Part shown: piece after piece, positions 6,637 through 51,285 of the stretch
How the letters are laid out: every line of letters begins with the position of its first letter
Position numbering within the stretch: the stretch's first letter is position 1
Assembly: GCF_056712565.1 (NCBI RefSeq)
Contig: NZ_CM160072.1
Length of the DNA stretch: 64,000 nucleotides
Strand: one strand, 5' to 3'
The notes under the pieces: model-generated
Told to the model about the DNA's origin: nothing
The model's database searches: none
What the model saw: the letters and a program-made list of their open reading frames with translations, nothing else
Translations under genes and position numbers: made by a program

Positions 6637-6774
6637 TTTTTGGTCCTTCTCTGGTGTTGTTTGGGAAGTGTAGAGCATGGCAGGGCGGGGTGCCTGGAGT
6701 GTGACAAAGGTTACACATCGCTGTATGCAATGCTGAAAATTTCAGCACTTAGCGAGGTGCGAGCAAGCTGGCGC

Positions 6775-6802
6775 TTGCATGGTGGCGTGCGACAGGTATA
6801 AT
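6775..6802 (+). promoter_or_regulatory. Sigma70-type promoter of leuX (-35 TTGCAT, 16-bp spacer, -10 TATAAT)
   Basis: TTGCAT at 6775-6780 and TATAAT at 6797-6802, about 30 bp upstream of the tRNA 5' end. Confidence 0.5.
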
Positions 6803-6831
6803 CCACAACGTTTTCCGCATACCTCTTCAGT

Positions 6832-6916
6832 GCCGAAGTGGCGAAATCGGTAGACGCAGTTGATTCAAAATCAACCGTAGAAATACGTGCCGGTTCGAGT
6901 CCGGCCTTCGGCACCA
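6832..6916 (+). tRNA. leuX: tRNA-Leu (anticodon CAA), 85 nt with encoded CCA end
   Basis: GCCGAAGTGGCGAAATCGGTAGACGCAGTTGATTCAAAATCAACC...GGTTCGAGTCCGGCCTTCGGCACCA: class II tRNA with long variable arm, anticodon loop TTCAAAA. Confidence 0.95.
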
Positions 6917-6930
6917 AAAGTATGTAAATA

Positions 6931-6953
6931 GACCTCAACTGAGGTCTTTTTTT
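6931..6953 (+). terminator. Rho-independent terminator of leuX
   Basis: Hairpin GACCTC-AACT-GAGGTC followed by a run of 7 T. Confidence 0.75.
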
Positions 6954-7176
6954 ATGCCTGAAATCCAGTGTTTATCTATCTTTCCCGCTATATTAACTCT
7001 CTCAAGGTCAACCGATATCAACGTACATCTACCAACATATGTTGGTACAGATGATGGTATTTCCGGTTCGATAATGCTTGTACCAACAGGGAGGGAATAC
7101 GATGGCATTAACAGATATCAAAGTCAGAGCAGCCAAGCCAACGGATAAGCAATATTAGCTGACTGATGGTGGCGGT

Positions 7177-8367
7177 ATGCATCTGCTTGTCCATCCAAAT
7201 GGTTCTAAGTACTGGCGTTTGCAGTACCGTTATGAGGGAAAGCAAAAAATGCTGGCACTTGGGGTTTATCCTGAAATCACACTAGCGGATGCCAGAGTAC
7301 GTCGTGACGAGACGCGTAAGCTGCTTGCGAATGGCGTCGATCCGGGAGACAAAAAGAAAAATGATAAGGTTGAACAGAGTAAAGCACGAACCTTTAAAGA
7401 AGTCGCGATTGAGTGGCATGGCACCAATAAAAAGTGGTCTGAAGATCACGCCCATCGTGTGCTAAAAAGTCTTGAAGATAATCTTTTTGCAGCGCTTGGT
7501 GAACGTAATATCGCTGAGTTAAAAACTCGAGATTTATTAGCACCTATTAAGGCCGTAGAAATGTCTGGACGTCTTGAAGTGGCCGCTCGTCTTCAGCAGC
7601 GCACTACAGCCATCATGCGCTATGCAGTGCAAAGTGGGTTAATTGATTATAACCCGGCACAAGAGATGGCTGGGGCGGTTGCTTCCTGTAATCGACAACA
7701 TCGTCCCGCGCTTGAATTAAAGCGCATCCCTGAGTTGCTTACAAAAATAGATAGCTATACTGGTAGGCCGCTAACCCGATGGGCGATAGAACTCACTTTG
7801 CTGATCTTTATTCGGTCCAGTGAGCTGCGTTTTGCTCGTTGGTCAGAGATCGATTTCGAAGCGTCTATATGGACTATCCCACCGGAGCGGGAGCCTATTC
7901 CTGGAGTGAAACATTCCCATAGAGGCTCAAAAATGCGTACAACGCATCTAGTGCCTCTTTCAACGCAAGCTCTTGCAATTTTAAAGCAGATAAAACAGTT
8001 TTATGGGGCCCATGACTTGATATTTATTGGTGATCACGATTCGCACAAACCCATGAGTGAGAATACGGTAAATAGTGCGTTACGGGTCATGGGGTATGAT
8101 ACAAAAGTAGAGGTTTGTGGTCATGGCTTTCGAACAATGGCCTGTAGTTCATTGGTCGAATCAGGTCTGTGGTCTCGTGATGCTGTTGAACGCCAGATGA
8201 GCCACATGGCGCGAAATTCAGTGAGGGCCGCGTATATCCATAAAGCAGAGCATCTGGAAGAACGGCGATTGATGCTACAGTGGTGGGCCGATTTTCTGGA
8301 TGTAAACAGAGAAAGGTTTATCAGTCCATTTGAATATGCAAAGATTAATAATCCATTAAAACAGTAA
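7177..8367 (+). CDS. intB: P4-type tyrosine integrase; intact ORF begins at internal ATG because the native start (ATG 7102) is followed by an in-frame TAG at 7156-7158
   Basis: 396-aa ORF with tyrosine-recombinase C-terminal region (HGFRTMACSSL...RAAYIHKAE); upstream in-frame MALTDIKVRAAKPTDKQY-stop-LTDGGG is the typical P4-integrase N-terminus; directly downstream of tRNA. Confidence 0.85.
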   Translation: MHLLVHPNGSKYWRLQYRYEGKQKMLALGVYPEITLADARVRRDETRKLLANGVDPGDKKKNDKVEQSKARTFKEVAIEWHGTNKKWSEDHAHRVLKSLEDNLFAALGERNIAELKTRDLLAPIKAVEMSGRLEVAARLQQRTTAIMRYAVQSGLIDYNPAQEMAGAVASCNRQHRPALELKRIPELLTKIDSYTGRPLTRWAIELTLLIFIRSSELRFARWSEIDFEASIWTIPPEREPIPGVKHSHRGSKMRTTHLVPLSTQALAILKQIKQFYGAHDLIFIGDHDSHKPMSENTVNSALRVMGYDTKVEVCGHGFRTMACSSLVESGLWSRDAVERQMSHMARNSVRAAYIHKAEHLEERRLMLQWWADFLDVNRERFISPFEYAKINNPLKQ

Positions 8368-8389: not shown

Positions 8390-8539
8390 AATTATTCTAG
8401 GATTATTTTCTTTGTTAAAAAAGACAAACGGTATTAACTGATGTATTTACTATTTACCGCTCCCTGCAGGGGGGATTATCAGAATCCGCGGTTATTCATT
8501 ATTTATATACATTCAATAAAAAAGTAACTGGATTTGCCC

Positions 8540-9445
8540 CTATATTTCCAGACACCTGTTATCACTTAACCCATTACTGGCTTGCTGCCGTAGATATTCC
8601 CGTGGCGAGCGATAACCCAGTGCACTATGCGGATGCCATTCGTTATAATGCTCGAACGCCTCTGCAAGGTTCTTTGCTGCCGTTAACCCGTCTGGTTTGG
8701 GCATGACACTGATGTAGTCACGCTTTATCGTTTTCACGAAGCTCTCTGCTATGCCGTTACTCTCCGGACTCCGCACCGCCGTGCTCTTCGGTTCAAGCCC
8801 CAACATCCGGGCAAACTGCCGTGTTTCATTAGCCCGGTAGCATGAACCATTATCCGTCAGCCACTCTACTGGAGACGCCGGAAGCTCGTTGCCGAAGCGG
8901 CGTTCCACCGCTCCCAGCATGACGTCCTGTACTGTTTCACTGTTGAAGCCGCCCGTAGTGACCGCCCAGTGCAGTGCCTCACGGTCACAGCAGTCCAGCG
9001 CGAACGTGACTCGCAGTTTTTCTCCGTTATCACAGCGGAACTCGAACCCGTCAGAGCACCATCGCTGATTACTTTCTTTCACAGCCACTCTGCCTGTATG
9101 TGCCCGTTTCGATGGCGGTACAGCAGGTTTTCGCTCAAGCAACAGCGCATTCTGGCGCATGATCCGGTAAACACGTTTGGCATTGATCGCAGGCATACCA
9201 TCAAGTTCTGCCTGTCTGCGAAGCAGCGCCCATACCCGACGATAACCATACGTGGGCAGCTCTCCGATAACATGGTGTATACGGAGAAGCACATCCGTAT
9301 CATCAGTGTGACGACTGCGGCGGCCATCCATCCAGTCATCGGTTCGTCTGAGAATGACGTGCAACTGCGCACGCGACACCCGGAGACAACGGCTGACTAA
9401 GCTTACTCCCCATCCCCGGGCAATAAGGGCGCGTGCGCTATCCAC
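8540..9445 (-). CDS. insD: IS2 transposase OrfB (InsD)
   Basis: 301-aa ORF, IS3-family DDE transposase (…[25 protein letters not shown]…). Confidence 0.9.
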
Positions 9446-9768
9446 TTTTTTGCCCGTCCATATTCAACGGCTTCTTTGAGGAGTTCATTTTCCATCGTTT
9501 TCTTGCCGAGCAGGCGCTGGAGTTCTTTAATCTGCTTCATGGCGGCAGCAAGTTCAGAGGCAGGAACAACCTGTTCTCCGGCGGCGACAGCAGTAAGACT
9601 TCCTTCCTGGTATTGCTTACGCCAGAGAAATAACTGGCTGGCTGCTACACCATGTTGCCGGGCAACGAGGGAGACCGTCATCCCTGGTTCAAAGCTCTGC
9701 TGAACAATTGCGATCTTTTCCTGTGTGGTACGCCGTCTGCGTTTCTCCGGTCCTAAGACATCAATCAT
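9403..9768 (-). CDS. insC: IS2 OrfA (InsC), HTH protein
   Basis: ORF 9403..9813; start set at [24 protein letters not shown] (121 aa); overlaps insD in the usual frameshift arrangement. Confidence 0.85.
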
Positions 9769-10103
9769 CTGCTCTCCAATGACTAGTCTAAAAACTAGTA
9801 TTAAGACTATCACTTAAATAAGTGATATTGGTTGTCTGGAGATTCAGGGGGCCAGTCTAGTAACCTCATAAAAAATCCTGTACTCACAGGGTGATGCGGG
9901 ATAACTGACGTAAGGAGTGCTGCAGGGATTTGATGGTCCCTTGTGCTGATATGAATACGGATATTTTATACAGAATACTTTTCAGTACAAGCGACTGTAT
10001 TACAGTCTGCCATATATGATTACCTGTGATCAGGAAGAATAAGTGGCTGAGGTTTCAAACTGTCTGCCGGTATATTCCTCTCTCCCTTAAAAACCATAAC
10101 AGG

Positions 10104-13953: not shown

Positions 13954-14049
13954 GTGTTTGTAACAAACTATCAGCTACAAAAATATGCTCAATTTGTGAC
14001 ATCAGTAACAAAACGCGTTTTGTTATGTGGATTGCTTGTTTTTTGATCT

Positions 14050-14072
14050 GGTATAACAGGTATAAAGGTATA
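14050..14072 (+). promoter_or_regulatory. NanR-type operator: three GGTATA hexamer repeats upstream of yjhBC
   Basis: GGTATAACAGGTATAAAGGTATA, the repeated GGTATA motif bound by the sialic acid regulator NanR. Confidence 0.55.
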
Positions 14073-14483
14073 CAGAAAAGCAAAGAAATACTGCAAAGGA
14101 AAACAGCTATAACGTAAGCTAAAGTAATAACCTCTCAGTCTTTCCTCATTTGACGAAGGGAGTTTTATTCAACCTGAACGGACTACGAAAATGAGCACAA
14201 TGAATAAGTCAATTTTTGAAGCAGGGTTGAACTGTGCCAGTGGTGGAATATCTGGCGAACATTGTTTTTTGTTGGTGACCCAAAACTGTAGGTGGGTATC
14301 AGTTTTATCTTTCATAGAGTGAAATATGTTAAGAAGAAATGGAGGAAAAGATTGTACTGATTAGGTATTGATAACAATCAATAGTACTGGCGTATTTGAA
14401 GACAATATAATTATTTCTGGATATTGTTGAGGCTCCCTAATATTTACTTTAAGGGCTATATTAGAATAACACAGGAAACAAAT

Positions 14484-15701
14484 ATGGCAACAGCATGGTA
14501 TAAACAAGTTAATCCACCACAACGGAAAGCTCTTTTTTCCGCATGGCTTGGATATGTATTTGATGGCTTTGATTTTATGATGATATTTTACATTCTTCAT
14601 ATTATAAAAGCAGATCTTGGCATTACGGATATTCAGGCTACTTTAATAGGGACAGTGGCCTTCATAGCCAGACCTATTGGAGGTGGTTTTTTTGGTGCCA
14701 TGGCTGATAAATATGGTCGTAAGCCAATGATGATGTGGGCAATTTTCATTTACTCAGTCGGAACAGGCCTTAGCGGTATTGCTACAAACTTATATATGCT
14801 CGCAGTTTGCCGTTTTATTGTTGGCTTAGGGATGTCTGGTGAATATGCATGTGCTTCAACTTATGCGGTAGAAAGTTGGCCTAAAAATCTTCAATCTAAA
14901 GCTAGTGCTTTTTTGGTAAGTGGTTTTTCTGTTGGAAATATTATTGCGGCACAAATAATCCCTCAGTTTGCTGAAGTATATGGATGGAGAAACTCTTTTT
15001 TTATAGGCCTGTTACCAGTTTTACTAGTTCTTTGGATCAGAAAAAGTGCTCCAGAAAGTCAGGAGTGGATTGAAGATAAATATAAGGATAAATCAACATT
15101 TTTGTCTGTCTTCAGAAAACCACATCTTTCAATCTCTATGATCGTTTTCCTCGTCTGTTTTTGTCTATTTGGTGCAAACTGGCCGATAAACGGACTACTT
15201 CCTTCCTACCTGGCAGATAATGGAGTTAATACAGTGGTCATTTCAACTCTGATGACAATAGCAGGTTTAGGAACACTGACAGGTACAATATTTTTTGGTT
15301 TTGTTGGTGATAAGATTGGTGTAAAAAAAGCCTTTGTAGTCGGTCTAATAACTTCATTTATTTTCCTTTGTCCTCTTTTTTTTATTTCTGTGAAAAACTC
15401 TTCTCTTATAGGATTATGTCTCTTTGGATTAATGTTTACAAATTTAGGTATTGCAGGGTTGGTTCCAAAATTTATATATGATTACTTTCCAACAAAATTA
15501 AGAGGATTAGGGACCGGTCTTATTTATAACTTAGGGGCAACTGGAGGAATGGCCGCACCTGTATTAGCTACATACATTTCAGGATATTATGGCTTAGGTG
15601 TTTCATTATTCATTGTTACGGTTGCATTCTCTGCCTTATTAATTTTGTTAGTTGGTTTTGATATTCCAGGTAAAATTTATAAACTATCCGTGGCTAAATG
15701 A
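14484..15701 (+). CDS. yjhB: MFS transporter, NanT-like (sialic acid-related)
   Basis: ORF 14424..15701; start set at MATAWYKQVNPPQRKALF (405 aa); 12-TM MFS protein. Confidence 0.8.
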   Translation: MATAWYKQVNPPQRKALFSAWLGYVFDGFDFMMIFYILHIIKADLGITDIQATLIGTVAFIARPIGGGFFGAMADKYGRKPMMMWAIFIYSVGTGLSGIATNLYMLAVCRFIVGLGMSGEYACASTYAVESWPKNLQSKASAFLVSGFSVGNIIAAQIIPQFAEVYGWRNSFFIGLLPVLLVLWIRKSAPESQEWIEDKYKDKSTFLSVFRKPHLSISMIVFLVCFCLFGANWPINGLLPSYLADNGVNTVVISTLMTIAGLGTLTGTIFFGFVGDKIGVKKAFVVGLITSFIFLCPLFFISVKNSSLIGLCLFGLMFTNLGIAGLVPKFIYDYFPTKLRGLGTGLIYNLGATGGMAAPVLATYISGYYGLGVSLFIVTVAFSALLILLVGFDIPGKIYKLSVAK

Positions 15702-15712
15702 TTGGAGGCTTT

Positions 15713-16831
15713 ATGATTAATTATGGCGTTGTTGGTGTTGGATACTTTGGCGCTGAATTAGCTCGTTTTATGAATATGCATGATAATGCAAAAATTACAT
15801 GTGTATACGATCCTGAAAATGGAGAAAATATTGCCCGTGAATTGCAGTGTATCAATATGTCAAGCTTGGATGCTTTAGTCTCAAGTAAATTAGTCGATTG
15901 CGTGATCGTAGCCACCCCAAATTATCTGCATAAAGAACCAGTAATTAAAGCAGCAAAGAATAAGAAGCATGTTTTTTGTGAAAAACCAATTGCATTAAGT
16001 TATGAAGATTGTGTGGATATGGTCAAAGCGTGTAAAGAAGCTGGTGTGACCTTTATGGCCGGGCATATTATGAATTTTTTCAATGGGGTTCAATATGCAC
16101 GGAAGTTAATTAAAGAAGGTGTTATCGGCGAAATATTATCATGTCATACTAAGAGAAATGGCTGGGAAAACAAACAAGAGAGACTTTCCTGGAAAAAGAT
16201 GAAAGAACAATCTGGTGGACATCTATATCATCATATACATGAGTTAGATTGTGTTCAGCATTTACTTGGAGAAATACCAGAGACGGTTACTATGATTGGT
16301 GGAAATTTGGCCCATTCTGGTCCAGGATTTGGCAATGAAGATGATATGTTATTTATGACCTTGGAATTCCCGTCAGGAAAACTAGCAACCTTAGAGTGGG
16401 GGAGTGCATTTAACTGGCCGGAACATTATGTCATCATCAATGGAACTAAAGGCTCTATTAAAATTGATATGCAAGAAACAGCAGGGTCACTTAGGATTGG
16501 CGGTCAGACAAAGCATTTTTTGGTCCATGAAACACAAGAAGAAGATGATGATCGTCGGAAAGGCAATATGACCTCAGAAATGGATGGCGCTATAGCATAT
16601 GGTCATCCAGGAAAAAAAACACCATTATGGCTTGCCAGTTTAATAAGAAAGGAGACGTTATTCCTCCATAATATCCTCTGTGGTGCAAAACCTGAAGAAG
16701 ATTATATTGACCTTCTCAATGGTGAGGCGGCCATGTCGGCGATTGCTACTGCTGATGCTGCCACTCTTTCAAGATCGCAGGACAGGAAAGTGAAAATCAG
16801 TGAGATCATTAAACATACATCAGTAATGTAA
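15713..16831 (+). CDS. yjhC: Gfo/Idh/MocA-family NAD-binding oxidoreductase
   Basis: ORF 15698..16831; start set at MINYGVVGVGYFG (Rossmann motif), 372 aa; 4-bp overlap with yjhB suggests an operon. Confidence 0.8.
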   Translation: MINYGVVGVGYFGAELARFMNMHDNAKITCVYDPENGENIARELQCINMSSLDALVSSKLVDCVIVATPNYLHKEPVIKAAKNKKHVFCEKPIALSYEDCVDMVKACKEAGVTFMAGHIMNFFNGVQYARKLIKEGVIGEILSCHTKRNGWENKQERLSWKKMKEQSGGHLYHHIHELDCVQHLLGEIPETVTMIGGNLAHSGPGFGNEDDMLFMTLEFPSGKLATLEWGSAFNWPEHYVIINGTKGSIKIDMQETAGSLRIGGQTKHFLVHETQEEDDDRRKGNMTSEMDGAIAYGHPGKKTPLWLASLIRKETLFLHNILCGAKPEEDYIDLLNGEAAMSAIATADAATLSRSQDRKVKISEIIKHTSVM

Positions 16832-37462: not shown

Positions 37463-37669
37463 ATGGCTACCCCTGTTTCGCTGATGGATGACCAGATGGT
37501 CGACATGGCGTTTATCACTCAACTTACCGGCTTAACCGATAAGTGGTTTTACAAACTCATCAAAGATGGGGGCTTTCCTGCCCCCATCAAAATGGGGCGC
37601 AGCTCCCGCTGGCTGAAAAGTGAAGTGGAAGCCTGGCTGCAGGCGCGTATTGCACAGTCCCGTCCGTAA
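37463..37669 (+). CDS. alpA: AlpA-family phage-type transcriptional regulator
   Basis: 68 aa, MATPVSLMDDQMVDMAFITQLTGLTDKWFYKLIKDGGFPAPIKMGRSSRWLKSEVEAWLQARI; start by frame within ORF 36959..37669. Confidence 0.75.
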   Translation: MATPVSLMDDQMVDMAFITQLTGLTDKWFYKLIKDGGFPAPIKMGRSSRWLKSEVEAWLQARIAQSRP

Positions 37670-38687: not shown

Positions 38688-40172
38688 TTACTTCGCTCTC
38701 AGCTTATTGTAGTGATAACCCGAGGTAAAAATACCAGAGACATCAGACAACTTTAAACTGGCTATCTGGGGAAGCAGAACATACATGGTTTTTCCTTCCG
38801 GCACGACAGAAAGCCTGAACTGAGATTCAAGAATGTTCAGCAATGCGTTCAGTTTTTTCCTGTTTCTGAACCGGCCCGGGCCACACTGGAGAATATAATT
38901 TTTCCTGACACGGGGCGGGCATTCTCCGCGGCACTCCTCAATGAGCCAGTCGAACAGCTCCTCGGCGTCCTTCTGCTGCAGTTCAGATTCATCAGGTAAC
39001 GCAAATAATTTTTTATATTCATCTGTGTACCACGAACTTATTACGACAGCAGACGTCATGATATCGGCAGAGATTTTCCCTTCACCATAGCTGAAATACT
39101 GAAATAACGCTGCAATTCTTGCAATGTTTTCTGTTTTTTTTGAAACATGTCCCCGAAACGGGCTTAAGGGTCCGGAAGGGGATAAATCCTGCTCCAGAAC
39201 ATTATAGTGCTCAATAAATATTTTTTGCGCTTCAGGCGAAAAATGCAGACAATACCGTTCATCCTCACTGGATTTTTCAATACTGCCTCTGGCCAGTTCC
39301 ATTAATCGTTCATGAAATGCCGTTAATGATCCTCCCGGAATCACAGCTCCGTTAATAAAGCGTTTCCCCTGCGTGGTTGCAGGTTTACTGATAAGACAAC
39401 GGGCAAGAAAACCACTGTCCCTGGCAACAGAACCTTTTCGCTCCATATATCGGTCAAAAAGACCGGGTTGCACCATGAGGGATAACGTCATTCTGGCATT
39501 TTCAATCATCTGTTCGGGTTCATTCTTTCTGTCCACAGACAATACAGAGCCATCCCACATTTTGTTAATAAAAGGCAACTCAGACAGGGTATATCCATCA
39601 AATATAATACCGGCTTCATCTGACATAATACCAACTGAACGCCATTTACCACAAAGCTGATTCTTAATTGCCGCAGTCGTGGCATCATTAAAAATGAATT
39701 TATACCTCACAGGTTCTTCCGCACTGTTTTTCTGAAGTACTTCCAGTTGTCTGAGGGTTTCTGACTCATCCGCGCCTTTGCGGAGTTCTTTATTCAGTTT
39801 TGACAACAATGCTTTTTTCTGAGCCTTTAAAAGCTCTTCCTTGTTTTTCCAGACAGCCAGTTCACTTTTGTATCTGGAATATAACTGCATCTCCTGCTGG
39901 TACAGGGGCTTCATTAATAATTTGTCCACTGCGGTTTTTCGTTCTCCGGACTCGGCAAGCGTCAGGAAAAAAAGAGAGACCGGCCCCCGCAGTGTATTCA
40001 GTCTGCAGACATCAATCAGATTCTGGCAGACAAGTGAAACAGCGCCCAGGGCAGACGCTGCCACAAGCCCAAGGGGAGCCTGCGTAATTTGCTGAGCTTC
40101 AATAACGGCATCACGAATGAGTGGAGGCAGCGAACTCAGGGGAAACTCATCACAAGGCTGACCGAATGACAT
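38688..40172 (-). CDS. DUF3987-like (YfjI-like) protein of phage-satellite/integrative-element type
   Basis: ORF 38688..40241; start probably MSFGQPCDEFPLSSLPPLIRDAV…; N-terminal pattern typical of DUF3987 (recollection). Confidence 0.5.
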   Translation of the reverse strand: MSFGQPCDEFPLSSLPPLIRDAVIEAQQITQAPLGLVAASALGAVSLVCQNLIDVCRLNTLRGPVSLFFLTLAESGERKTAVDKLLMKPLYQQEMQLYSRYKSELAVWKNKEELLKAQKKALLSKLNKELRKGADESETLRQLEVLQKNSAEEPVRYKFIFNDATTAAIKNQLCGKWRSVGIMSDEAGIIFDGYTLSELPFINKMWDGSVLSVDRKNEPEQMIENARMTLSLMVQPGLFDRYMERKGSVARDSGFLARCLISKPATTQGKRFINGAVIPGGSLTAFHERLMELARGSIEKSSEDERYCLHFSPEAQKIFIEHYNVLEQDLSPSGPLSPFRGHVSKKTENIARIAALFQYFSYGEGKISADIMTSAVVISSWYTDEYKKLFALPDESELQQKDAEELFDWLIEECRGECPPRVRKNYILQCGPGRFRNRKKLNALLNILESQFRLSVVPEGKTMYVLLPQIASLKLSDVSGIFTSGYHYNKLRAK

Positions 40173-41241
40173 AGTAACCTCACTATACACAGATATAAAA
40201 GCACTGCAATTCTGGCTATTAATAGCAAAAATAGCAGTCAAATCAATATGAGGTAAAATTTTTTGTTGATTTAATGGTTAAATAATAACCACAGTGTATT
40301 TTGCTGCTGAAGAAAGACAAAATGAATCTGTGTGTCCCCTCCTTCCCTTCGGAGCACATCCACTATTCAAATTTTACACAACCACGTACGAACAAAAAGC
40401 ATCATCCCGGGTATTGCAGATACCGGTTTCCTGCCGGGAAGAATCATAAACAGAACACCGGGAATAACGCCTTCAGGAATCACCCCCCCTCCTGAAGAAG
40501 AATAAAATAAAGAAGACTACAGTTCCTGCACTGAATGCTGAGTACAATATTTTATGGACAGGATGACATTTTTATAAATAACAAAAACCATTTAATACTG
40601 ATACATCAATAAAATACTTCTTCCCTGCTGACACAGATAAAATGCACCATTTTTTCTTCAAATACTTCTGTATAATCGCCAGCCAATGATGAGAATGGAT
40701 TAAAATAACACTTCTTCGACAAACACAAAAACAGCCTTCATTTTACATCATCATCCAGTTTCAGTTAACCCCGGACGAGCGACAGTGTTTCAGTACAGGA
40801 ATTAAAAGCCAGCTTTTGCTCAGTAAAACACACTCAACTAATAATATCTCAGCAGATATTATCCTGACCAGGACACCTCACATTACTGAATTCTCTTCCG
40901 ACAGTATCACTGCACAAATAAAAAGAACGGGATAAATATTCAGACCGGAAGAATGGTGTCACAAAAGCATTTAATCATTACGCATGACCAGGAAGGGAAA
41001 CACTTAACCACATGGTATCAACAGATATCATTACGTGTGCACTCTTATAAAAAACACACAGAAGAAGTAAGATAATTATAAACGTAAATTTAATATCTCC
41101 CACTGACATCTCCCCCACAATACACTAAAAAATACTCACAGCAGTAAACACAGATACACCTGATAATCATACAGCCGATAAATATTTTCCCCTTTACGGA
41201 GAAATCAGCCTGCTGTTTAACAATAACGGCGTATTTTCATG

Positions 41242-41282
41242 GAAGGAGATCACCCAGTAACGGATAAGTCCTGATCTCCTTC
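41242..41282. repeat. 11-bp perfect inverted repeat with GATC in each arm, about 120 bp upstream of the GTPase gene
   Basis: GAAGGAGATCA-(19 nt)-TGATCTCCTTC. Confidence 0.4.
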
Positions 41283-41401
41283 ATGTTAATACGCAACAAT
41301 CCCATCGATTCAAAACAATTTCAGACAGATATTATCTCCGTGAATCCCCCGCCACCTTTCCGGTGCGCGGGGTTTTGTCTTTTTTCACCGGGAATACATG
41401 T

Positions 41402-42274
41402 ATGAATCCGTCTGATGCCATTGAGGCAATTGAAAAACCGCTCTCCTCCCTGCCTTACTCACTTTCCCGTCACATCCTGGAACATCTGCGCAAACTCACC
41501 AGTCACGAACCCGTGATTGGCATTATGGGTAAAAGCGGGGCCGGTAAATCCTCACTCTGTAATGCACTGTTTCAGGGGGAGGTCACCCCGGTCAGTGATG
41601 TTCACGCCGGCACCCGGGAAGTACGGCGCTTCCGTCTGAGTGGCCACGGTCACAGCATGGTTATCACTGACCTGCCCGGGGTGGGCGAGAGCCGGGACAG
41701 GGATGCAGAGTATGAAGCCCTGTACCGTGACATTCTGCCCGAACTGGACCTGGTGCTGTGGCTGATTAAAGCCGATGACCGCGCCCTGTCTGTGGATGAG
41801 TATTTCTGGCGACACATCCTGCACCGGGGACATCAGCAGGTGCTGTTTGTGGTGACGCAGGCCGACAAAACGGAGCCCTGCCATGAATGGGATATGGCCG
41901 GCATTCAGCCTTCTCCCGCACAGGCACAGAACATTCGGGAGAAAACGGAGGCGGTATTCCGTCTGTTCCGGCCCGTACATCCGGTTGTTGCCGTATCGGC
42001 CCGCACCGGCTGGGAACTGGATACGCTGGTCAGTGCGCTAATGACAGCACTTCCCGACCATGCCGCCAGTCCCCTGATGACCCGCCTGCAGGACGAGCTG
42101 CGCACGGAATCTGTCCGCGCTCAGGCCCGTGAACAGTTTACCGGTGCGGTGGACCGGATATTTGACACGGCGGAGAGCGTCTGTGTTGCCTCTGTTGCCC
42201 GTACGGTTCTGCGTGCCGTCCGTGACACGGTGGTCTCTGTTGCCCGCGCTGTATGGAACTGGATTTTCTTCTGA
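41402..42274 (+). CDS. YeeP/YkfA/YfjP-type GTPase (CP4 prophage family)
   Basis: ORF 41363..42274, start MNPSDAIEAIE; G1 motif GKSGAGKSS, G3 DLPG; precedes the Ag43 gene as in CP4-44. Confidence 0.8.
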   Translation: MNPSDAIEAIEKPLSSLPYSLSRHILEHLRKLTSHEPVIGIMGKSGAGKSSLCNALFQGEVTPVSDVHAGTREVRRFRLSGHGHSMVITDLPGVGESRDRDAEYEALYRDILPELDLVLWLIKADDRALSVDEYFWRHILHRGHQQVLFVVTQADKTEPCHEWDMAGIQPSPAQAQNIREKTEAVFRLFRPVHPVVAVSARTGWELDTLVSALMTALPDHAASPLMTRLQDELRTESVRAQAREQFTGAVDRIFDTAESVCVASVARTVLRAVRDTVVSVARAVWNWIFF

Positions 42275-42392
42275 ACAGTCCGCCAGGGAAATGCCTGATA
42301 ACATTACGTTAACCAACTGAAAACATGACACAAACCCCTCATACTCCTCCTGTTTCTCTTGCGTGACCGCCTTGTCGTTAATAGAATAAAAC

Positions 42393-42428
42393 GATCGATA
42401 AAACAGGTATCGATCGTTACTATCGATC
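42393..42428 (+). promoter_or_regulatory. Antigen 43 phase-variation switch: three GATC (Dam) sites, expected to overlap the OxyR site
   Basis: GATC at 42393, 42412 and 42425 (spacing 19 and 13 bp) about 220 bp upstream of the flu start codon. Confidence 0.65.
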
Positions 42429-42645
42429 GTTTATAGTGGTTAATGGTCTGCGAAAAGGCAGCTGAATCTCTTCATCATGCAGAACGGAATTGCACACAAC
42501 GGACTGATACTTCTCTGGCGGATGAGAGAGGGGAAGCATTTATGTCCGGGAAAAACCACTTTATCTGAGCATGCTGTTTTGTACCTGCCGGTATCCACAT
42601 TTGTGGGTACCGGCTTTTTTATTCACCCTCTGTAAGGAAAAGCTG

Positions 42646-45600
42646 ATGAAACGACATCTGAACACCAGCTACAGGCTGGTATGGAATCACATTACGGGCA
42701 CCCTGGTGGTGGCCTCCGAACTGGCCCGCTCACGGGGAAAACGCGCTGGTGTGGCGGTTGCGCTGTCTCTTGCTGCTGTCACATCAGTCCCGGCACTGGC
42801 TGCTGACAAGGTTGTACAGGCGGGAGAAACCGTGAACGACGGAACACTGACAAATCATGACAACCAGATTGTCCTCGGTACGGCCAACGGAATGACCATC
42901 AGTACCGGTCTGGAGTATGGGCCGGATAACGAGGCCAATACCGGCGGACAATGGATACAAAATGGCGGTATCGCCAACAACACTACTGTCACCGGTGGTG
43001 GTCTTCAGAGAGTGAATGCCGGAGGAAGCGTTTCAGACACGGTTATCAGTGCCGGAGGCGGACAGAGCCTTCAGGGGCAGGCAGTGAACACCACTCTGAA
43101 CGGCGGTGAGCAGTGGGTACATGAAGGCGGGATTGCAACGGGTACCGTCATTAATGAGAAGGGCTGGCAGGCCATCAAATCCGGCGCAGTGGCAACCGAC
43201 ACGGTTGTGAATACCGGCGCGGAAGGGGGACCGGATGCGGAAAATGGTGATACCGGGCAGACCGTCTACGGAGATGCCGTACGCACCACCATCAATAAAA
43301 ATGGTCGTCAGATTGTGGCTGCTGAAGGAACGGCAAATACCACTGTGGTTTATGCCGGCGGCGACCAGACTGTACATGGTCACGCACTGGATACCACGCT
43401 GAATGGGGGGTACCAGTATGTGCACAACGGCGGTACGGCGTCTGGCACTGTTGTAAACAGTGACGGCTGGCAGATTGTCAAAAACGGGGGTGTGGCCGGG
43501 AATACCACCGTTAATCAGAAGGGCAGACTGCAGGTGGACGCCGGTGGTACAGCCACGAATGTCACCCTGAAGCAGGGCGGCGCACTGGTTACCAGTACGG
43601 CTGCAACCGTTACCGGCATAAACCGCCTGGGAGCATTCTCTGTTGTGGAGGGTAAAGCTGATAATGTCGTACTGGAAAATGGCGGACGCCTGGATGTGCT
43701 GACCGGACACACAGCCACTAATACCCGCGTGGATGATGGCGGAACGCTGGATGTCCGCAACGGTGGCACCGCCACCACCGTATCCATGGGAAATGGCGGT
43801 GTACTGCTGGCCGATTCCGGTGCCGCTGTCAGTGGTACCCGGAGCGACGGAAAGGCATTCAGTATCGGAGGCGGTCAGGCGGATGCCCTGATGCTGGAAA
43901 AAGGCAGTTCATTCACGCTGAACGCCGGTGATACGGCCACGGATACCACGGTAAATGGCGGACTGTTCACCGCCAGGGGCGGCACACTGGCGGGCACCAC
44001 CACGCTGAATAACGGCGCCATACTTACCCTTTCCGGGAAGACGGTGAACAACGATACCCTGACCATCCGTGAAGGCGATGCACTCCTGCAGGGAGGCTCT
44101 CTCACCGGTAACGGCAGCGTGGAAAAATCAGGAAGTGGCACACTCACTGTCAGCAACACCACACTCACCCAGAAAGCCGTCAACCTGAATGAAGGCACGC
44201 TGACGCTGAACGACAGTACCGTCACCACGGATGTCATTGCTCAGCGCGGTACAGCCCTGAAGCTGACCGGCAGCACTGTGCTGAACGGTGCCATTGACCC
44301 CACGAATGTCACTCTCGCCTCTGGTGCCACCTGGAATATTCCCGATAACGCCACGGTGCAGTCGGTGGTGGATGACCTCAGCCATGCTGGACAGATTCAT
44401 TTCACCTCCACCCGCACAGGGAAGTTCGTACCGGCAACCCTGAAAGTGAAAAACCTGAACGGACAGAATGGCACCATCAGCCTGCGTGTACGCCCGGATA
44501 TGGCACAGAACAATGCTGACAGACTGGTCATTGACGGTGGCAGGGCAACTGGAAAAACCATCCTGAACCTGGTGAACGCCGGCAACAGTGCGTCGGGGCT
44601 GGCGACCAGCGGTAAGGGTATTCAGGTGGTGGAAGCCATTAACGGTGCCACCACGGAGGAAGGGGCCTTTATCCAGGGGAATAAGCTGCAGGCCGGTGCC
44701 TTTAACTACTCCCTCAACCGGGACAGTGATGAGAGCTGGTATCTGCGCAGTGAAAATGCTTATCGTGCTGAAGTCCCCCTGTATACATCCATGCTGACAC
44801 AGGCAATGGACTATGACCGGATTCTGGCAGGCTCCCGCAGCCATCAGACCGGTGTAAACGGTGAAAATAACAGCGTCCGTCTCAGCATTCAGGGCGGTCA
44901 TCTCGGTCACGATAACAACGGCGGTATTGCCCGTGGAGCCACGCCGGAAAGCAGCGGCAGTTATGGCTTCGTCCGTCTGGAGGGTGACCTGCTGAGAACA
45001 GAGGTTGCCGGTATGTCTCTGACGACAGGGGTGTATGGTGCCGCAGGCCATTCTTCCGTTGATGTTAAGGATGATGACGGTTCCCGCGCCGGCACGGTCC
45101 GGGATGATGCCGGCAGTCTGGGCGGATACCTGAATCTGGTACACACGTCCTCCGGCCTGTGGGCTGACATTGTGGCACAGGGAACCCGCCACAGCATGAA
45201 AGCATCATCGGACAATAACGACTTCCGCGCCCGGGGCTGGGGCTGGCTGGGCTCACTGGAAACCGGTCTGCCCTTCAGTATCACTGACAATCTGATGCTG
45301 GAGCCACAACTGCAGTACACCTGGCAGGGACTCTCCCTGGATGACGGCCAGGATAACGCCGGTTATGTGAAGTTCGGGCATGGCAGTGCACAACATGTGC
45401 GTGCCGGCTTCCGTCTGGGCAGCCACAACGATATGAACTTTGGTAAAGGCACCTCATCCCGTGACACCCTGCGCGACAGTGCCAAACACAGTGTGCGTGA
45501 ATTGCCGGTGAACTGGTGGGTACAGCCTTCTGTTATCCGCACTTTCAGCTCCCGGGGTGACATGAGCATGGGTACAGCCGCCGCCGGCAGTAACATGACG

Positions 45601-45765
45601 TTCTCACCGTCCCGGAATGGCACGTCACTGGACCTGCAGGCCGGACTGGAAGCCCGTGTCCGGGAAAATATCACCCTGGGCGTTCAGGCCGGTTATGCCC
45701 ACAGCGTCAGCGGCAGCAGCGCTGAAGGTTATAACGGTCAGGCCACGCTGAATGTGACTTTTTGA
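42646..45765 (+). CDS. flu: Antigen 43 self-associating autotransporter adhesin
   Basis: ORF 42571..45765; start [52 protein letters not shown] (extended autotransporter signal peptide); repetitive Gly/Thr/Asn beta-helix passenger; C-terminal beta-barrel ending …GQATLNVTF. Confidence 0.9.
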
Positions 45766-45788
45766 TAATCAGGTCACTCTCCTTCAGG

Positions 45789-45815
45789 CCCCGGTCATCA
45801 TGACCGGGGCTTTTT
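45789..45815 (+). terminator. Rho-independent terminator of flu
   Basis: Hairpin CCCCGGTCA-TCA-TGACCGGGG followed by CTTTTT. Confidence 0.7.
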
Positions 45816-45835
45816 ACTTTCAGGGAGCAACAGAT

Positions 45836-45994
45836 ATGCCGGGTTGTACATCTCGTTTATTGCCCGAAGGCCCTTTCTCACGCGAACAGGCTGTTGCCGT
45901 CAAAACAGCTTACCGCAATGTGTTTACTGAAGATGACCAGGGAACATATTCCCGGCTGGTTATCCGTAATGCTGAAGGTCAGTTGCGCTGGTGA
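45836..45994 (+). CDS. Small hypothetical protein (52 aa) of CP4-type modules
   Basis: In-frame ATG downstream of the flu terminator within ORF 45800..45994. Confidence 0.35.
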
Positions 45995-46148
45995 TGCCGG
46001 AACACAGCTTAATACTCAGCTCGCCAGTTAAGGGCTTCTCAGACAATAAACGTCATTCATTTCATCTGTCAGGCCGCGTCTTCTCCGGGAGACGTGGCTT
46101 TTTCATTTATTACACCAGTAAATCGTAACCACCGATAAGGAGCAAATT

Positions 46149-46967
46149 ATGCGACTAGCCAGTCGTTTTGGTTATGCGAACCAGATACGCCGTGACCGTC
46201 CGCTGACACACGAAGAACTGATGCACTATGTTCCCAGTATTTTCGGTGAAGACCGGCATACTTCCCGCAGTAAACGATATGCGTACATTCCCACCATCAC
46301 CGTACTGGAAAGCCTGCAGCGGGAAGGCTTTCAGCCATTCTTCGCCTGCCAGACCCGTGTGCGCGACCCGGGCCGCCGGGGATACACAAAACACATGCTG
46401 CGTCTGCGGCGGGCCGGAGAGATAAACGGAGAACATGTCCCTGAAATCATTCTGCTCAACTCCCATGACGGTACCTCCAGCTACCAGATGCTGCCGGGTT
46501 ACTTCAGGTTCGTCTGTCAGAACGGATGCGTCTGTGGTCAGTCTCTGGGGGAAGTGCGTGTTCCGCACCGGGGAAATGTGGTGGACAGATTCATTGAAGG
46601 GGCTTACGAGGTGGTGGGCGTGTTTGACCGGATAGAGGAGAAGCATGATGCCATGCAGTCGCTGGTCCTGTCGCCACCGGCACGCCAGGCGCTGGCACAG
46701 GCGGCACTGACTTACCGTTATGGTGACGAACATCAGCCAGTCACCACCGCTGACATTCTGACACCACGACGCAGGGAGGGTTACGGTCAGGACCTGTGGA
46801 GCGCATATCAGACCATCCAGGAGAATATGCTGAAAGGCGGAATTTCCGGCCGCAGTGCAAAAGGAAAACGTATCCACACCCGTGCCATTCACAACATCGA
46901 CACCGATATTAAGCTCAACCGCGCATTGTGGGTAATGGCAGAAACGCTGCTGGAGAGCCTGCGCTGA
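46149..46967 (+). CDS. DUF932-like protein (YfjQ/YafZ family)
   Basis: 272 aa; size and position after the GTPase/Ag43 genes match YfjQ/YafZ-type proteins (recollection). Confidence 0.6.
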   Translation: MRLASRFGYANQIRRDRPLTHEELMHYVPSIFGEDRHTSRSKRYAYIPTITVLESLQREGFQPFFACQTRVRDPGRRGYTKHMLRLRRAGEINGEHVPEIILLNSHDGTSSYQMLPGYFRFVCQNGCVCGQSLGEVRVPHRGNVVDRFIEGAYEVVGVFDRIEEKHDAMQSLVLSPPARQALAQAALTYRYGDEHQPVTTADILTPRRREGYGQDLWSAYQTIQENMLKGGISGRSAKGKRIHTRAIHNIDTDIKLNRALWVMAETLLESLR

Positions 46968-47308
46968 TGCAGCATGTCCCTGAAAGCGTGATTCAGGCAC
47001 CAGAATCACCCGACGCCCCGGAGGCGCTGCCGGGGTGTCGTTCCATTTCTGATGATGACCTGTGCGCCTGGTGTACCCGTCTGCTTTACCGTCCCGGAGA
47101 AATCAGTCTGTGCAGACTGAGTATACAGGCAATGGCATCTGGCCATCCGTCTGTGACCGGAACGGTTACGCGTACGGCTGTCCGGAATTTCAGCCGAATA
47201 TCATTCATCCCTGATATTACCGGGTCATCACGGTCAGTGATGAACGTGATGTTGCCAGCTCCCGACCTTTACTCCCTCTCATTTATTCACATTACAAGGA
47301 TTTCATAC

Positions 47309-47782
47309 ATGAAAACATTGTCTCAGAACACCACCTCTTCGGCCTGTGCACCGGAGACTGACCTGCAAAAACTGGTAGCCACTCCCGTCCCTGATGAACG
47401 GCGCATCAGCTTCTGGCCGCAGCACTTTGGCCTCATTCCACAGTGGGTGACCCTGGAGCCCCGTATCTTCGGCTGGATGGACCGTCTGTGTGAAGACTAC
47501 TGCGGTGGTATCTGGAATCTGTACACCCTGAACAACGGCGGGGCATTTATGGCACCCGAACCGGATGACGATGATGACGAAACATGGGTACTGTTCAATG
47601 CCATGAACGGTAACCGCGCTGAAATGAGCCCGGAAGCCGCCGGCATTGCTGCCTGTCTGATGACGTACAGTCATCATGCCTGTCGTACGGAGTGTTATGC
47701 CATGACGGTCCATTATTACCGGCTGCGGGATTACGCCCTGCAGCATCCGGAATGCAGCGCCATTATGCGCATCATCGACTGA
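47309..47782 (+). CDS. Antirestriction protein (KlcA/ArdB-like; YfjX/YafX family)
   Basis: 157 aa from MKTLSQNTTSS…; upstream part of the same ORF (46967..47308) may be a separate small gene or an N-terminal extension. Confidence 0.65.
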   Translation: MKTLSQNTTSSACAPETDLQKLVATPVPDERRISFWPQHFGLIPQWVTLEPRIFGWMDRLCEDYCGGIWNLYTLNNGGAFMAPEPDDDDDETWVLFNAMNGNRAEMSPEAAGIAACLMTYSHHACRTECYAMTVHYYRLRDYALQHPECSAIMRIID

Positions 47783-47797
47783 ATGGAGAGAAGTACA

Positions 47798-48274
47798 ATG
47801 CAACAGCTTTCCTTTCTGCCCGGAGAGATGACGCCCGGCGAGCGCAGCCTCATTCAACGGGCCCTGAAAACCCTGGACCGCCATCTTCATGAACCCGGCG
47901 TGGCCTTCACCTCCACCCGTGCGGCACGAGAATGGCTGATTCTGAACATGGCGGGACTGGAGCGTGAAGAGTTCCGGGTGCTGTATCTGAACAACCAGAA
48001 TCAGCTGATTGCCGGTGAAACCCTCTTCACCGGCACCATCAACCGCACGGAAGTCCATCCCCGGGAAGTGATTAAACGCGCCCTGTATCACAATGCCGCT
48101 GCTGTGGTGCTGGCACACAATCACCCGTCCGGTGAAGTCACACCCAGCAAGGCAGACCGCCTTATCACGGAACGTCTGGTACAGGCACTGGGCCTGGTGG
48201 ATATCCGGGTGCCGGACCATCTGATAGTCGGTGGCAGCCAGGTTTTCTCCTTTGCCGAATATGGTCTGCTTTAA
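47798..48274 (+). CDS. RadC-like JAB-domain protein (YeeS/YkfG/YfjY family)
   Basis: JAMM motif HNHPSGEVTPSKAD; ORF 47783..48274. Confidence 0.8.
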   Translation: MQQLSFLPGEMTPGERSLIQRALKTLDRHLHEPGVAFTSTRAAREWLILNMAGLEREEFRVLYLNNQNQLIAGETLFTGTINRTEVHPREVIKRALYHNAAAVVLAHNHPSGEVTPSKADRLITERLVQALGLVDIRVPDHLIVGGSQVFSFAEYGLL

Positions 48275-48336
48275 CCCGTCACAACCACATCACACCTGTT
48301 TTCACTTTTATCTTCTGTCTTCAGAGGTATCCCACT

Positions 48337-48558
48337 ATGAAAATCATCACCCGTGGCGAAGCCATGCGTATTCACCGTCAGCATCCGGCATCCCGTCTTT
48401 TTCCGTTCTGTACCGGCAAATACCGCTGGCACGGCAGTGCTGAAGCGTATACCGGTCGTGAAGTGCAGGATATTCCCGGTGTGCTGGCCGTGTTTGCAGA
48501 ACGCCGTAAGGACAGTTTTGGTCCGTATGTCCGGCTGATGAGCGTCACCCTGAACTGA
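48337..48558 (+). CDS. YeeT-like small protein (DUF987)
   Basis: 73 aa; position between the RadC-like gene and the antitoxin as in CP4-44. Confidence 0.65.
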   Translation: MKIITRGEAMRIHRQHPASRLFPFCTGKYRWHGSAEAYTGREVQDIPGVLAVFAERRKDSFGPYVRLMSVTLN

Positions 48559-48720
48559 TGTTCCGTCACCCGGAAAACGAGTACGACTGGCAGAGCTCAG
48601 ACGCCGCTGTGGATGAGGTCCTGCTCATCAACGAATACACCTTTACCGAAGCCGGTCTGCGCGCCGGCTGACCCGTCATCGTTAAACTATCATTCACCGA
48701 TTTTCTGTGAGGATTTTATC

Positions 48721-49089
48721 GTGTCAGACACACTTTCCGGGACAACGCATCCCGATGACAATGACGACCATCCCTGGTGGGGACTACCCTGCACAGTGAC
48801 GCCCTGTTTCGGCGCCCGTCTGGTGCAGGAGGGTAACCGGTTGCATTACCTTGCCGACCGTGCCGGTATCAGAGGCCGGTTCAGAGATGCGGATGCGTAC
48901 CCTCTGGACCAGGCCTTTCCGCTGCTGATGAAACAACTGAAATTAATGCTCACCAGTGGTGAACTGAATCCCCGCCATCAGCATACCGTGACACTGTATG
49001 CGAAGGGGCTGACCTGTGAAGCCGACACCCTCGGCTCCTGTGGTTACGTTTATCTGGCTGTTTATCCGACACCTGAAACGAAAAAGTAA
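48721..49089 (+). CDS. cbeA: CbeA/YeeU-family antitoxin, GTG start
   Basis: VSDTLSGTTHPDDNDDHPWWGLPCTVTPCFGARLVQEGNRLHYLADRAGIRG…TPETKK, 122 aa, matches the CbeA family along its length. Confidence 0.75.
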   Translation: MSDTLSGTTHPDDNDDHPWWGLPCTVTPCFGARLVQEGNRLHYLADRAGIRGRFRDADAYPLDQAFPLLMKQLKLMLTSGELNPRHQHTVTLYAKGLTCEADTLGSCGYVYLAVYPTPETKK

Positions 49090-49178
49090 ACCACCAGAAT
49101 AACCTTCTGCTCCGGCCTGGTGTTTTCACCACGCCACTGTCCCATTTTTTATCTCTGCATATCAGGAAAATCTTCAGT

Positions 49179-49409
49179 ATGAAAACATTACCCGACACGC
49201 ATGTACGGGAGGTATCGTGCTGCCCGTCTCCAGTCACCATCTGGCAGACACTGCTCACCCGGTTACTGGACCAGCATTCCCTGATTTCCTCATCGATATC
49301 GAATAAGCACTCGTCGCAGAATTCTTTATCGAGTGAGAGCCTCTGTTCAAGGACGCTTCTTTTTTTTGTTGCAACGTGCACATCCCTTCATCTTTCCGCG
49401 CCTTTGTGA
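49179..49409 (+). pseudogene. cbtA: Truncated CbtA/YeeV-family toxin gene (only about the first 33 codons are toxin-like)
   Basis: MKTLPDTHVREVSCCPSPVTIWQTLLTRLLDQH matches the CbtA/YkfI/YpjF N-terminus; from about 49278 the frame reads unrelated low-complexity sequence. Confidence 0.7.
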
Positions 49410-50016: not shown

Positions 50017-51276
50017 ATGACGGATTCAATTCCATCAGGTTACAAGCCGCTGACATGTGACACGCTGCCGGGTTATCTCTCGTCCAGACTGACCCCTTCA
50101 TGCGAACCGGGAGGGTTACCTGAAGAGTGGAAAGTTTCAGAAGTGGGGGACGGAAACCTGAACATGGTGTTTATCGTTGAGGGGACACATAAAACCATCA
50201 TTGTAAAACAAGCTCTGCCCTGGCTTCGTGCCGGGGGCGAAGGATGGCCTTTATCTCTGAGCCGTGCGGGCTTTGAGTACAACGTCTTATGTCAGGAAGC
50301 CAAGTACGCGGGTCACACACTGATTCCGCAGGTCTATTTTTACGACCCGGAAATGGCGCTGTTTGCCATGGAGTATCTGACTCCTCACGTGATTCTGCGT
50401 AAGGAACTGATTAACGGTAAAAAATTCCCTAAACTAGCTGAAGATATCGGCAGATTTTTAGCACAGACTCTCTTCAATACGTCTGACATTGGCATGTCAG
50501 CAGAACAGAAAAAAGCGCTTACTGCCGAGTTCGCGTTGAATCATGAGCTGTGCAAAATTACGGAAGATCTGATCTTCACAGAGCCCTATTACAACGCTGA
50601 ACGGAATAACTGGACTTCTCCTGAGCTGGACGATGCCGTCCATAAGGCCTGGGCTGATGTAGAGATGATCCAGGTTGCCATGCGTTATAAGTACAAATTT
50701 ATGACAGAAGCGCAGGCATTGTTACATGGCGACCTTCATTCAGGCTCAATCATGGTGACCGACACGGATACCAAAGTGATTGATCCGGAGTTCGGTTTCA
50801 TGGGGCCAATGGCGTTTGATATCGGCAACTATATTGGCAACCTCCTGCTGGCGTACTTCTCACGCCCTGGGTGGGATGCGAATGAGCAACGTCGCGCTGA
50901 CTATCAGGAATGGCTGCTTCAGCAGATTGTCCAAACCTGGTCCGTTTTCACCCGGGAGTTCCGCCAGCTCTGGGACAACAAAACACAGGGCGACGCGTGG
51001 TCGACAGAAATGTATCAACAGAACAGGGCCGCTCTTGAGGACGCACAGGATCAGTTTTTTGCCACGCTGCTTGAAGATTCCCTGGTGAATGCCGGCATGG
51101 AAATGAATCGCCGGATCATTGGTTTTGCTGGCGTTGCCGAGCTGAAACAGATTGAAAATACAGAGCTTCGCGCAGGATGTGAACGACGTGCATTGACCAT
51201 GGCGCGCGATCTTATCGTCAATGCCCGCCAGTTTAAAAATATGGATTCCGTCATCCAGTCTGCGAAGGTTAAGTAA
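50017..51276 (+). CDS. mtnK: 5-methylthioribose kinase-like kinase
   Basis: 419 aa; phosphotransferase fold with HGDLHSGSIMV catalytic motif; first gene of a four-gene co-directional cluster. Confidence 0.8.
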   Translation: MTDSIPSGYKPLTCDTLPGYLSSRLTPSCEPGGLPEEWKVSEVGDGNLNMVFIVEGTHKTIIVKQALPWLRAGGEGWPLSLSRAGFEYNVLCQEAKYAGHTLIPQVYFYDPEMALFAMEYLTPHVILRKELINGKKFPKLAEDIGRFLAQTLFNTSDIGMSAEQKKALTAEFALNHELCKITEDLIFTEPYYNAERNNWTSPELDDAVHKAWADVEMIQVAMRYKYKFMTEAQALLHGDLHSGSIMVTDTDTKVIDPEFGFMGPMAFDIGNYIGNLLLAYFSRPGWDANEQRRADYQEWLLQQIVQTWSVFTREFRQLWDNKTQGDAWSTEMYQQNRAALEDAQDQFFATLLEDSLVNAGMEMNRRIIGFAGVAELKQIENTELRAGCERRALTMARDLIVNARQFKNMDSVIQSAKVK

Positions 51277-51285
51277 GAGGTCATT

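Follow-up and report, generated by a model that had tools for sequence, protein, structure and literature searches.

The leuX–intB junction as the probable left end of a decayed, immobile P4-family integrative island

Phage P4 integrates in a leucine tRNA gene, and its integrase, Int, represses its own promoter (PMC7286903). PAI II536 excises from and integrates at leuX, with 18-bp repeats, and does so also in K-12 (PMC3202238, PMC9686529), and the leuX islands listed for strains S88 and ED1a, PAI-S88-leuX and PAI-ED1a-leuX, carry Fec and Ag43 (PMC7545054). KpLE2 has likewise been described at leuX (PMC3032704). In the RefSeq record of MG1655, intB is annotated as a pseudogene, and the "cryptic prophage PR-Y" is exactly its 1266-nt frame, 4496675–4497940. 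Here we compare with these systems the leuX locus of a 64,000-nt stretch of DNA, which as a whole is referred to as the window. In our assessment the region is very probably the attL of a decayed P4-family integrative island at leuX, the long form of KpLE2/"PR-Y", and immobile. The leuX–intB junction itself is real and ordinary, established biology of a well-annotated locus that is already known, and it matters little beyond correct annotation. The analysis settles that the island of the window strain is fixed in place: attL is present, and attR and an intact integrase are absent.

The leuX junction and its attachment site

The sole tRNA gene that ARAGORN finds in the 64-kb window is that of a tRNA-Leu(CAA), at 6832–6916 on the plus strand, and the Rfam tRNA model (RF00005) matches 6832–6913 with 59.4 bits. 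In genomes identical to the window, the annotation of this gene and of the flanking idnR-idnK and ahr is that of the E. coli ahr-leuX region. The features of the junction up to the integrase frame are the following.

6832–6916, plus strand: leuX, tRNA-Leu(CAA), intact (ARAGORN; Rfam RF00005; annotated as tRNA-Leu/leuX in near-identical genomes and in K-12)
6897–6916, plus strand: att core of attL, the last 20 nt of leuX, GAGTCCGGCCTTCGGCACCA (identity to the P4 attP core; divergence of other islands at 6916–6919)
6917–6966, plus strand: first 50 nt of the island-side arm, carrying the leuX terminator (terminator scan)
7016–7090, both strands: five TACCAACATA/TGTTGGTA-type 10-mers, candidate arm-type Int sites (shuffle test, P4 layout)
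7030–7037 (minus), 7040–7047 (plus) and 7081–7088 (minus): exact 8-mers of the repeat cluster
7016–7025 and 7050–7059: degenerate copies of the repeat cluster
7089–7095, plus strand: Shine-Dalgarno-like GGGAGGG, 6 nt before the ATG at 7102 (read from the sequence)

The ahr-leuX flank is kept in 5424 of the 5426 complete E. coli genomes, as determined by megablast. In genomes with other island types the alignment ends at the tRNA 3' end (query 317–320, corresponding to window 6916–6919), and with the CFT073-type island it ends at 6966, the terminator segment being common to that island and the window. CFT073, Ec387 and isolate 624 each have different content at the leuX 3' end. The conservation of the flank and the divergence of other island types at the tRNA 3' end argue that the leuX–intB junction is not a chance pairing, and the first-pass annotation of this DNA, which described a tRNA-targeting-island junction, is borne out on this point. 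Indeed, of the features expected of a tRNA-borne island, the locus has an intact tRNA gene with an att core, a downstream three-domain integrase in the same orientation, and content that varies among strains from a breakpoint at the tRNA 3' end onward; at the far border, no direct repeat of this 3' end is present.

The last 20 nt of leuX (6897–6916) are identical at 20 of 20 positions to the annotated "attP core sequence" of phage P4 (X51522/X05947), in agreement with the earlier proposal that the 3' portion of leuX is the left attachment site. Within the 185-nt spacer between leuX and int lie the leuX terminator and clustered repeats of the TGTTGGTA type. The terminator scan places a hairpin at 6930–6947, followed by a T run, and the 50 nt that include it (6917–6966) recur unchanged in the CFT073-type island and are also repeated at the isolate 624 attR. 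Five copies of the repeat are not attained in any of 200 shuffles, and only three exact TGTTGGTA octamers exist in the whole 64 kb, all of them at 7030–7088. The TGTTGGTA copies lie +122 to +174 from the core. P4 has three annotated "attP arm sequence repeats" shortly before int, at +113 to +163 nt counted from the core. Two of these are direct and one is inverted, and the first overlaps the annotated −10 of the P4 int promoter. Alignment of the leuX-proximal spacers of four island types reveals a conserved scaffold (terminator, GTCAACC, TTCGATA) in which the repeat motifs are type-specific. On the basis of the P4-like layout and of this scaffold with its type-specific motifs, we infer that the repeats at 7016–7090 would act as arm-type Int-binding sites overlapping the int regulatory region. 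A consensus scan of 6650–7250 finds no sigma-70-like promoter for int. Separately, GTGAGTATAC-type repeats can be seen by eye in the aligned CFT073 spacer, where the automatic repeat search was drawn to the terminator instead.

An integrase frame with an amber codon

The integrase frame opens with the ATG at 7102, which is 6916 plus 186, and its stop codon is at 8365–8367. The P4-type integrase gene was earlier said to begin 186 bp after the tRNA 3' end; that type and that start are correct, and the span of 6832–8367 given for tRNA and integrase together is exact. The amber codon within the frame is absent from that annotation.

7102–8367, plus strand: intB, P4-type tyrosine integrase frame of 421 codons, an amber-interrupted pseudogene (translation, Pfam, identity to P4 Int)
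7156–7158, plus strand: amber codon at codon 19, AAG (Lys) to TAG, inside the arm-binding domain (alignment to intact alleles)
7177–8367, plus strand: longest uninterrupted ATG ORF, 396 aa from Met26, the frame annotated as intB in K-12
8529–9859, minus strand: IS2 copy immediately downstream of int (97.7% identical to MG1655 IS2K, inverted; annotated IS3-family transposase)

The conceptual IntB matches three Pfam domains, Arm-DNA-bind_3 at residues 3–87, Phage_int_M at 98–192 and Phage_integrase at 207–383, and aligns with phage P4 Int along 97% of its length at 58.5% identity. Intact 421-aa alleles with AAG (Lys) at codon 19 occur in strains AR_0019, isolate 624 and CUVET24. By exact 41-mer, the TAG allele is present in 922 and the AAG allele in 1148 of the 5426 complete E. 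coli genomes, which form a redundant collection with many clones and laboratory strains, so that the counts are not independent events. The 41-nt megablast queries were centred on the variable base, and every 28-nt seed therefore includes that base. The window intB differs from one intact allele by only three amino acids besides the stop, and from the isolate 624 allele at 8 of 421 codons, stop included. Synonymous versus non-synonymous differences between amber and intact alleles number 3 versus 4 and 7 versus 8, counts too small to speak for or against selection. These comparisons settle the nature of the 396-aa "IntB" ORF: it represents the rear part of a 421-codon integrase gene that an amber codon interrupts.

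The 396-codon frame after the amber is otherwise intact, and judged from its sequence a protein initiated at Met26 might retain some residual activity. It could even be proposed that the amber allele is alive, with the 396-aa or a read-through product serving as a recombinase, as a repressor at arm and core sites, or as a modulator of incoming elements that target leuX. The open frame after codon 19, with its central and catalytic domains matched, is in keeping with this proposal, as are the wide distribution of the allele (the 922 genomes above) and the three amino-acid differences from an intact allele. However, by the Pfam profile the Met26 product would be without about the first 23 of the 83 positions of the arm-binding domain, and there is no attR for it to act on; the low divergence fits a recent mutation without selection equally well. 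Moreover, PAI II536 integrates at leuX of K-12 SY327 (PMC3202238), and no blocking is evident if SY327 carries the MG1655 amber allele. We therefore consider a live amber allele very improbable. Slightly less credible still is the idea that the allele has been kept for a role of its own, in which a truncated or read-through integrase would bind the leuX core and arm sites and modulate either how the locus is expressed or the arrival of P4- and PAI II-type elements. Read-through of the amber could arise, for example, after a CAA to CUA supP-type change in the adjacent leuX.

The right-hand end of the island

The window ends inside sgcC, in agreement with the earlier statement that it stops within the sgc operon, and the far side of the variable region was followed in a closely matching genome. 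Window 26800–64000 is the same as strain Z0117EC0054 with one mismatch, and window 1–28499 is 99.99% identical to strain 104. The Z0117EC0054 locus (L002) reaches 12.7 kb past the window, through sgcX, yjhPQ-topAI, yjhR', nanS', nanM, nanC and fimB. Sequence common to CFT073 and Ec387 resumes only at 44477–44696 of this locus, about 71.3–71.5 kb in window terms, and the variable region is therefore about 64 kb long, from leuX to nanS. Downstream of leuX the GC content varies from 0.36 to 0.59, as in a mosaic.

A complete, potentially mobile leuX island, with its right-hand direct repeat simply past the end of the window, would be in line with the classical tRNA–int arrangement and with the flanking repeats of related leuX islands (PMC9686529). 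A second leuX 3' end was sought in the window and the Z0117EC0054 locus with 23-, 18- and 15-mers, allowing 2–3 mismatches without gaps, and only leuX itself was found. Gapped blastn-short searches with attL (6832–7101), the 47 nt of the tRNA 3' end and the attR relic of Ec387 returned only chance matches of at most 14 nt. One of these is a 13/14 match inside agn43 (45036–45049, minus strand), and the others are exact 9- to 12-mers, several on the wrong strand, with E values of at least about 0.5. Neither the 50 nt following leuX (6917–6966; gapless or gapped) nor the cognate arm-repeat pair (window plus Z0117EC0054 locus) has a second copy between leuX and fimB. As a specific candidate, the right edge of the variable region, at about 44.4–44.7 kb of the Z0117EC0054 locus, was inspected, and no att site was found there. 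In K-12 MG1655, too, there is no right-hand repeat up to fimE.

The first-pass annotation had placed the right-hand direct repeat beyond the window and proposed a search of the downstream sequence for it, with its absence there to count against the reading. From leuX to fimB, in the genome with one mismatch as in K-12, there is none, and the former end likely lay inside the window. As regards a mobile island, that reading is formally refuted, and the island status of the region is still shown by the comparison among strains. With no repeat-like sequence in the 12.7 kb that lead to the conserved nanS-nanM-nanC-fimB flank, and with a stop at codon 19 of the integrase, the mobile island is largely refuted, and we give it hardly any weight. 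Since there is neither an attR nor an intact integrase, no excision is to be expected.

Where the right end may have been is suggested by the backbone of the island, which contains the following features.

37463–37669, plus strand: AlpA-family small HTH protein, 68 aa (Pfam Phage_AlpA, 5e-08, above cut-off)
38688–49277: CP4-type backbone with yfjI/DUF3987, GTPase, agn43, DUF905', DUF932, antirestriction, RadC/JAB, DUF987, yeeU and cbtA' (annotation of an identical genome, Pfam)
49277/49278: breakpoint inside cbtA, the backbone ending in truncated cbtA (homology to isolate 624 stops)

AlpA has a role in CP4-57 excision, and the AlpA-family protein encoded here would be a candidate excision or directionality factor of the island backbone. 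The most informative comparator is isolate 624 (NZ_OW967003.1), which has an intact integrase and a 23.4-kb island at leuX. The right end of that island consists of GTPase...yeeU-cbtA-DUF5983-DUF957, followed by two direct TGTTGGTA repeats and then by the leuX-end repeat, which the arm repeats precede by 64–76 nt. Its attR is a 74-nt imperfect repeat of the leuX 3' end, with one gap, three mismatches and a 17-nt exact core, and after it comes a CFT073-type integrase remnant, so that two islands stand in tandem. The arm motif that precedes int in the window recurs at this attR, which ties the two ends of the island together.

The window backbone is 85–92% identical to the right-end module of isolate 624 up to 49278, where the homology ends, and this breakpoint (megablast query 578/579) is common to 404 genomes. 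The isolate 624 island runs 1.45 kb beyond the equivalent point to reach its attR. A deletion at 49277/49278 probably took the cbtA 3' end, DUF5983, DUF957, the P arm and, as we infer, attR. On the most economical view of this sequence comparison, the former right end may have lain about 1.5 kb past 49278, inside the window, and have been deleted since, a placement for and against which we see about equal weight. Backbone modules are multi-copy per genome and the identity is 85–92%, and for these reasons both the link of the backbone to IntB and the placement of attR near 49.3 kb are tentative. An att site at the cbtA'/mtnK breakpoint itself was also considered and rejected: strain KFu023, which has a different left neighbour for the mtnK segment, carries other accessory DNA there, with restriction-system genes and no att site.

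The same data bear on the reading that only the int remnant is a P4-type relic and that the DNA to its right stems from unrelated IS-mediated or recombinational insertions, with alpA-cbtA' from an island of another integrase. The MG1655 RefSeq record limits PR-Y to the int frame, IS copies are many, GC changes are abrupt, the backbone is no closer than 85–92% to an isolate 624 module that is multi-copy in genomes, and the mtnK segment has other left neighbours in other strains; all of these would fit. However, the same backbone type in isolate 624 ends directly at an attR with IntB-specific TGTTGGTA arm repeats, and 1370 genomes have the isolate 624-type right end along with the leuX repeat, which makes the backbone the usual partner of leuX integrases. 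We consider an int remnant among unrelated DNA unlikely. It differs from a decayed island in degree, and the region is an immobile relic under both.

For a decayed island, the following course may be proposed. The attP of an ancestral circular element would have comprised the final ~20 nt of leuX, a terminator and TGTTGGTA arm-type repeats. Its integrase would have recombined attP with the leuX 3' end, as suggested by the anatomy of the junction and by P4 and PAI II536, and in so doing would have rebuilt the tRNA gene from element DNA and set int 186 nt downstream. The attL anatomy survives in the core at 6897–6916, the terminator at 6930–6947 and the arm repeats at 7016–7090. Mobility has been lost with the amber at codon 19, in the arm-binding domain, and with the right-hand site, both its core copy and its P-arm repeats, the latter loss most likely through the deletion ending inside cbtA at 49277/49278. 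In the about 64 kb from leuX to nanS, IS elements are now mixed with cargo genes (nanXY, fec, agn43, mtnKA, yjh, sgc) and with what is left of older insertions, and leuX is still a usable attB for incoming elements.

Comparison with known systems

The closest relative is KpLE2/PR-Y of K-12 MG1655. The ahr-leuX-intB junction is 99.8% identical in the two, with the same attL anatomy and no attR, and the intB 5' sequence is identical, TAG at codon 19 included. The nanXY-fec-yjh-sgc cargo and its gene order are shared as well, and the window and MG1655 4495500–4542500 align in colinear blocks of 99.8–99.96% identity. The window has an additional 21.3 kb at 32805–54123 (alpA, yfjI, GTPase, agn43, yeeU, cbtA' and the mtnK/mtnA cluster), a further difference is a BCCT transporter/IS600 segment in the window, where IS2 moreover has the opposite orientation and a position shifted by 79 bp. 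In K-12 the edge of the missing 21.3-kb segment abuts IS1F exactly, and K-12 therefore carries a deleted derivative of the longer form. This comparison settles the window island as the long, undeleted form of K-12 KpLE2.

With prophages of the CP4-57 (alpA-intA) type, the island has in common an AlpA-family regulator, a P4-type integrase and a yfjI...yeeU/cbtA-type backbone; those prophages, however, use another tRNA or tmRNA target, and in the window alpA lies 30 kb from int and the system is disabled. The IntB-type island of isolate 624 has the same attL, arm motif and backbone type, whereas its integrase is intact, its length is 23.4 kb, its attR is present, and it stands in tandem before the CFT073-type integrase remnant. 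CFT073 itself has at leuX a type III restriction/helicase island behind a broken integrase.

P4 (int-attP, X51522 and X05947) shares with the window the leuX 3' end as target, the identical 20-nt core, a three-domain Int and the position of int beside attL, the gene being closely preceded by two direct arm repeats and an inverted one. It differs in that the two Int proteins are only 58.5% identical and the arm motif is GGGGGCAT in P4 versus TGTTGGTA in the window, where in addition the integrase is broken and attR absent. P4 genes for replication, regulation or capsid size are lacking: of the set that spans about 11.6 kb between the repeats of a P4 prophage (alpha primase-helicase, cI/icd, sid, delta, psu), none is annotated in the window island. 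A true P4-like prophage is found at leuX in strain Ec387, where 15-nt exact repeats lie 11,637 nt apart.

Finally, PAI II536 and other ExPEC leuX islands resemble the window in having a P4-like integrase beside leuX, fec and Ag43 cargo and an IS mosaic (PMC7545054, PMC9686529, PMC3202238). PAI II536, however, still has an active integrase and is flanked by 18-bp repeats, and both its excision and its re-integration occur; the window island has neither an active integrase nor flanking repeats. P4 and IntB-type islands stack in tandem at leuX, which remains a docking site for P4-like satellites and PAI II-type islands.

The leuX end and its copies

Three features of the window frame the left end of the island:
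6832-6916, leuX, tRNA-Leu(CAA), whose 3' end is the left attachment site
7102-8367, intB, the P4-type integrase frame
7156-7158, amber codon at position 19 of intB

A CAA to CUA change in the leuX anticodon yields the classical amber suppressor supP. Just 240 nt separate leuX from the amber codon of intB, and this closeness to a potential supP gene is probably a coincidence. Beside the integrase, the IS2 copy (8529-9938 region) has the opposite orientation to IS2K of MG1655 and a position displaced by 79 bp; the 79-bp segment is thereby found on different sides of the element in the two genomes.

Sequence of the leuX end also occurs elsewhere. On the 92-kb plasmid pCP53-92k (NZ_CP033095.1), a 44-nt stretch flanked by two tyrosine-recombinase genes matches the leuX 3' end without a difference (L011, the plasmid locus, 4001-4044; window 6874-6917). 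It may represent an attP of the plasmid or an att site that the plasmid has captured. In strain Ec387, at the attR of a P4-like prophage (L004, the locus of that strain, 31934-31974), the displaced leuX end precedes an 8-nt unit present three times in tandem, CCTTCGCA, after which comes a relic homologous to window 6917-7100 (the terminator and int upstream region) with no integrase behind it.

Defence genes past attR in isolate 624

Isolate 624 has a second layer past attR, behind a CFT073-type integrase remnant (L009, its locus, 1-26136). The defence genes there encode a JetD-domain protein, a WYL regulator, a full-length phosphorothioate-DNA-binding restriction endonuclease, an HNH endonuclease and type II Zorya. 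In the window's strain, CFT073 and Ec387, the phosphorothioate-DNA-binding endonuclease is reduced to fragments beside nanS, and no such fragment is annotated at nanS in the K-12 record.

Cargo composition and the segment missing from K-12

GC content is extreme over nanX/nanY (0.357, window 14000-16000) and over fecBCD/fecA (0.59, 26000-30000), which points to different origins for these cargo blocks.

K-12 MG1655 lacks a 21.3-kb segment of the window:
32805-54123, ariR-like gene, phytase-like esterase, IS66', alpA, yfjI, GTPase, agn43, yeeU, cbtA' and mtnK-mtnA-aldolase-GRP transporter

The edge of the corresponding gap in MG1655 falls exactly against IS1F, an alignment that suggests an IS1-adjacent deletion in K-12.

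The mtnK-mtnA-fuculose-phosphate-aldolase-like-GRP transporter cluster (50017-54181) sits within the leuX variable region, its left edge being the breakpoint at 49278, and is similar to the gene cluster for salvage of SAM by-products ("DHAP shunt") that has been described from leuX islands of ExPEC.
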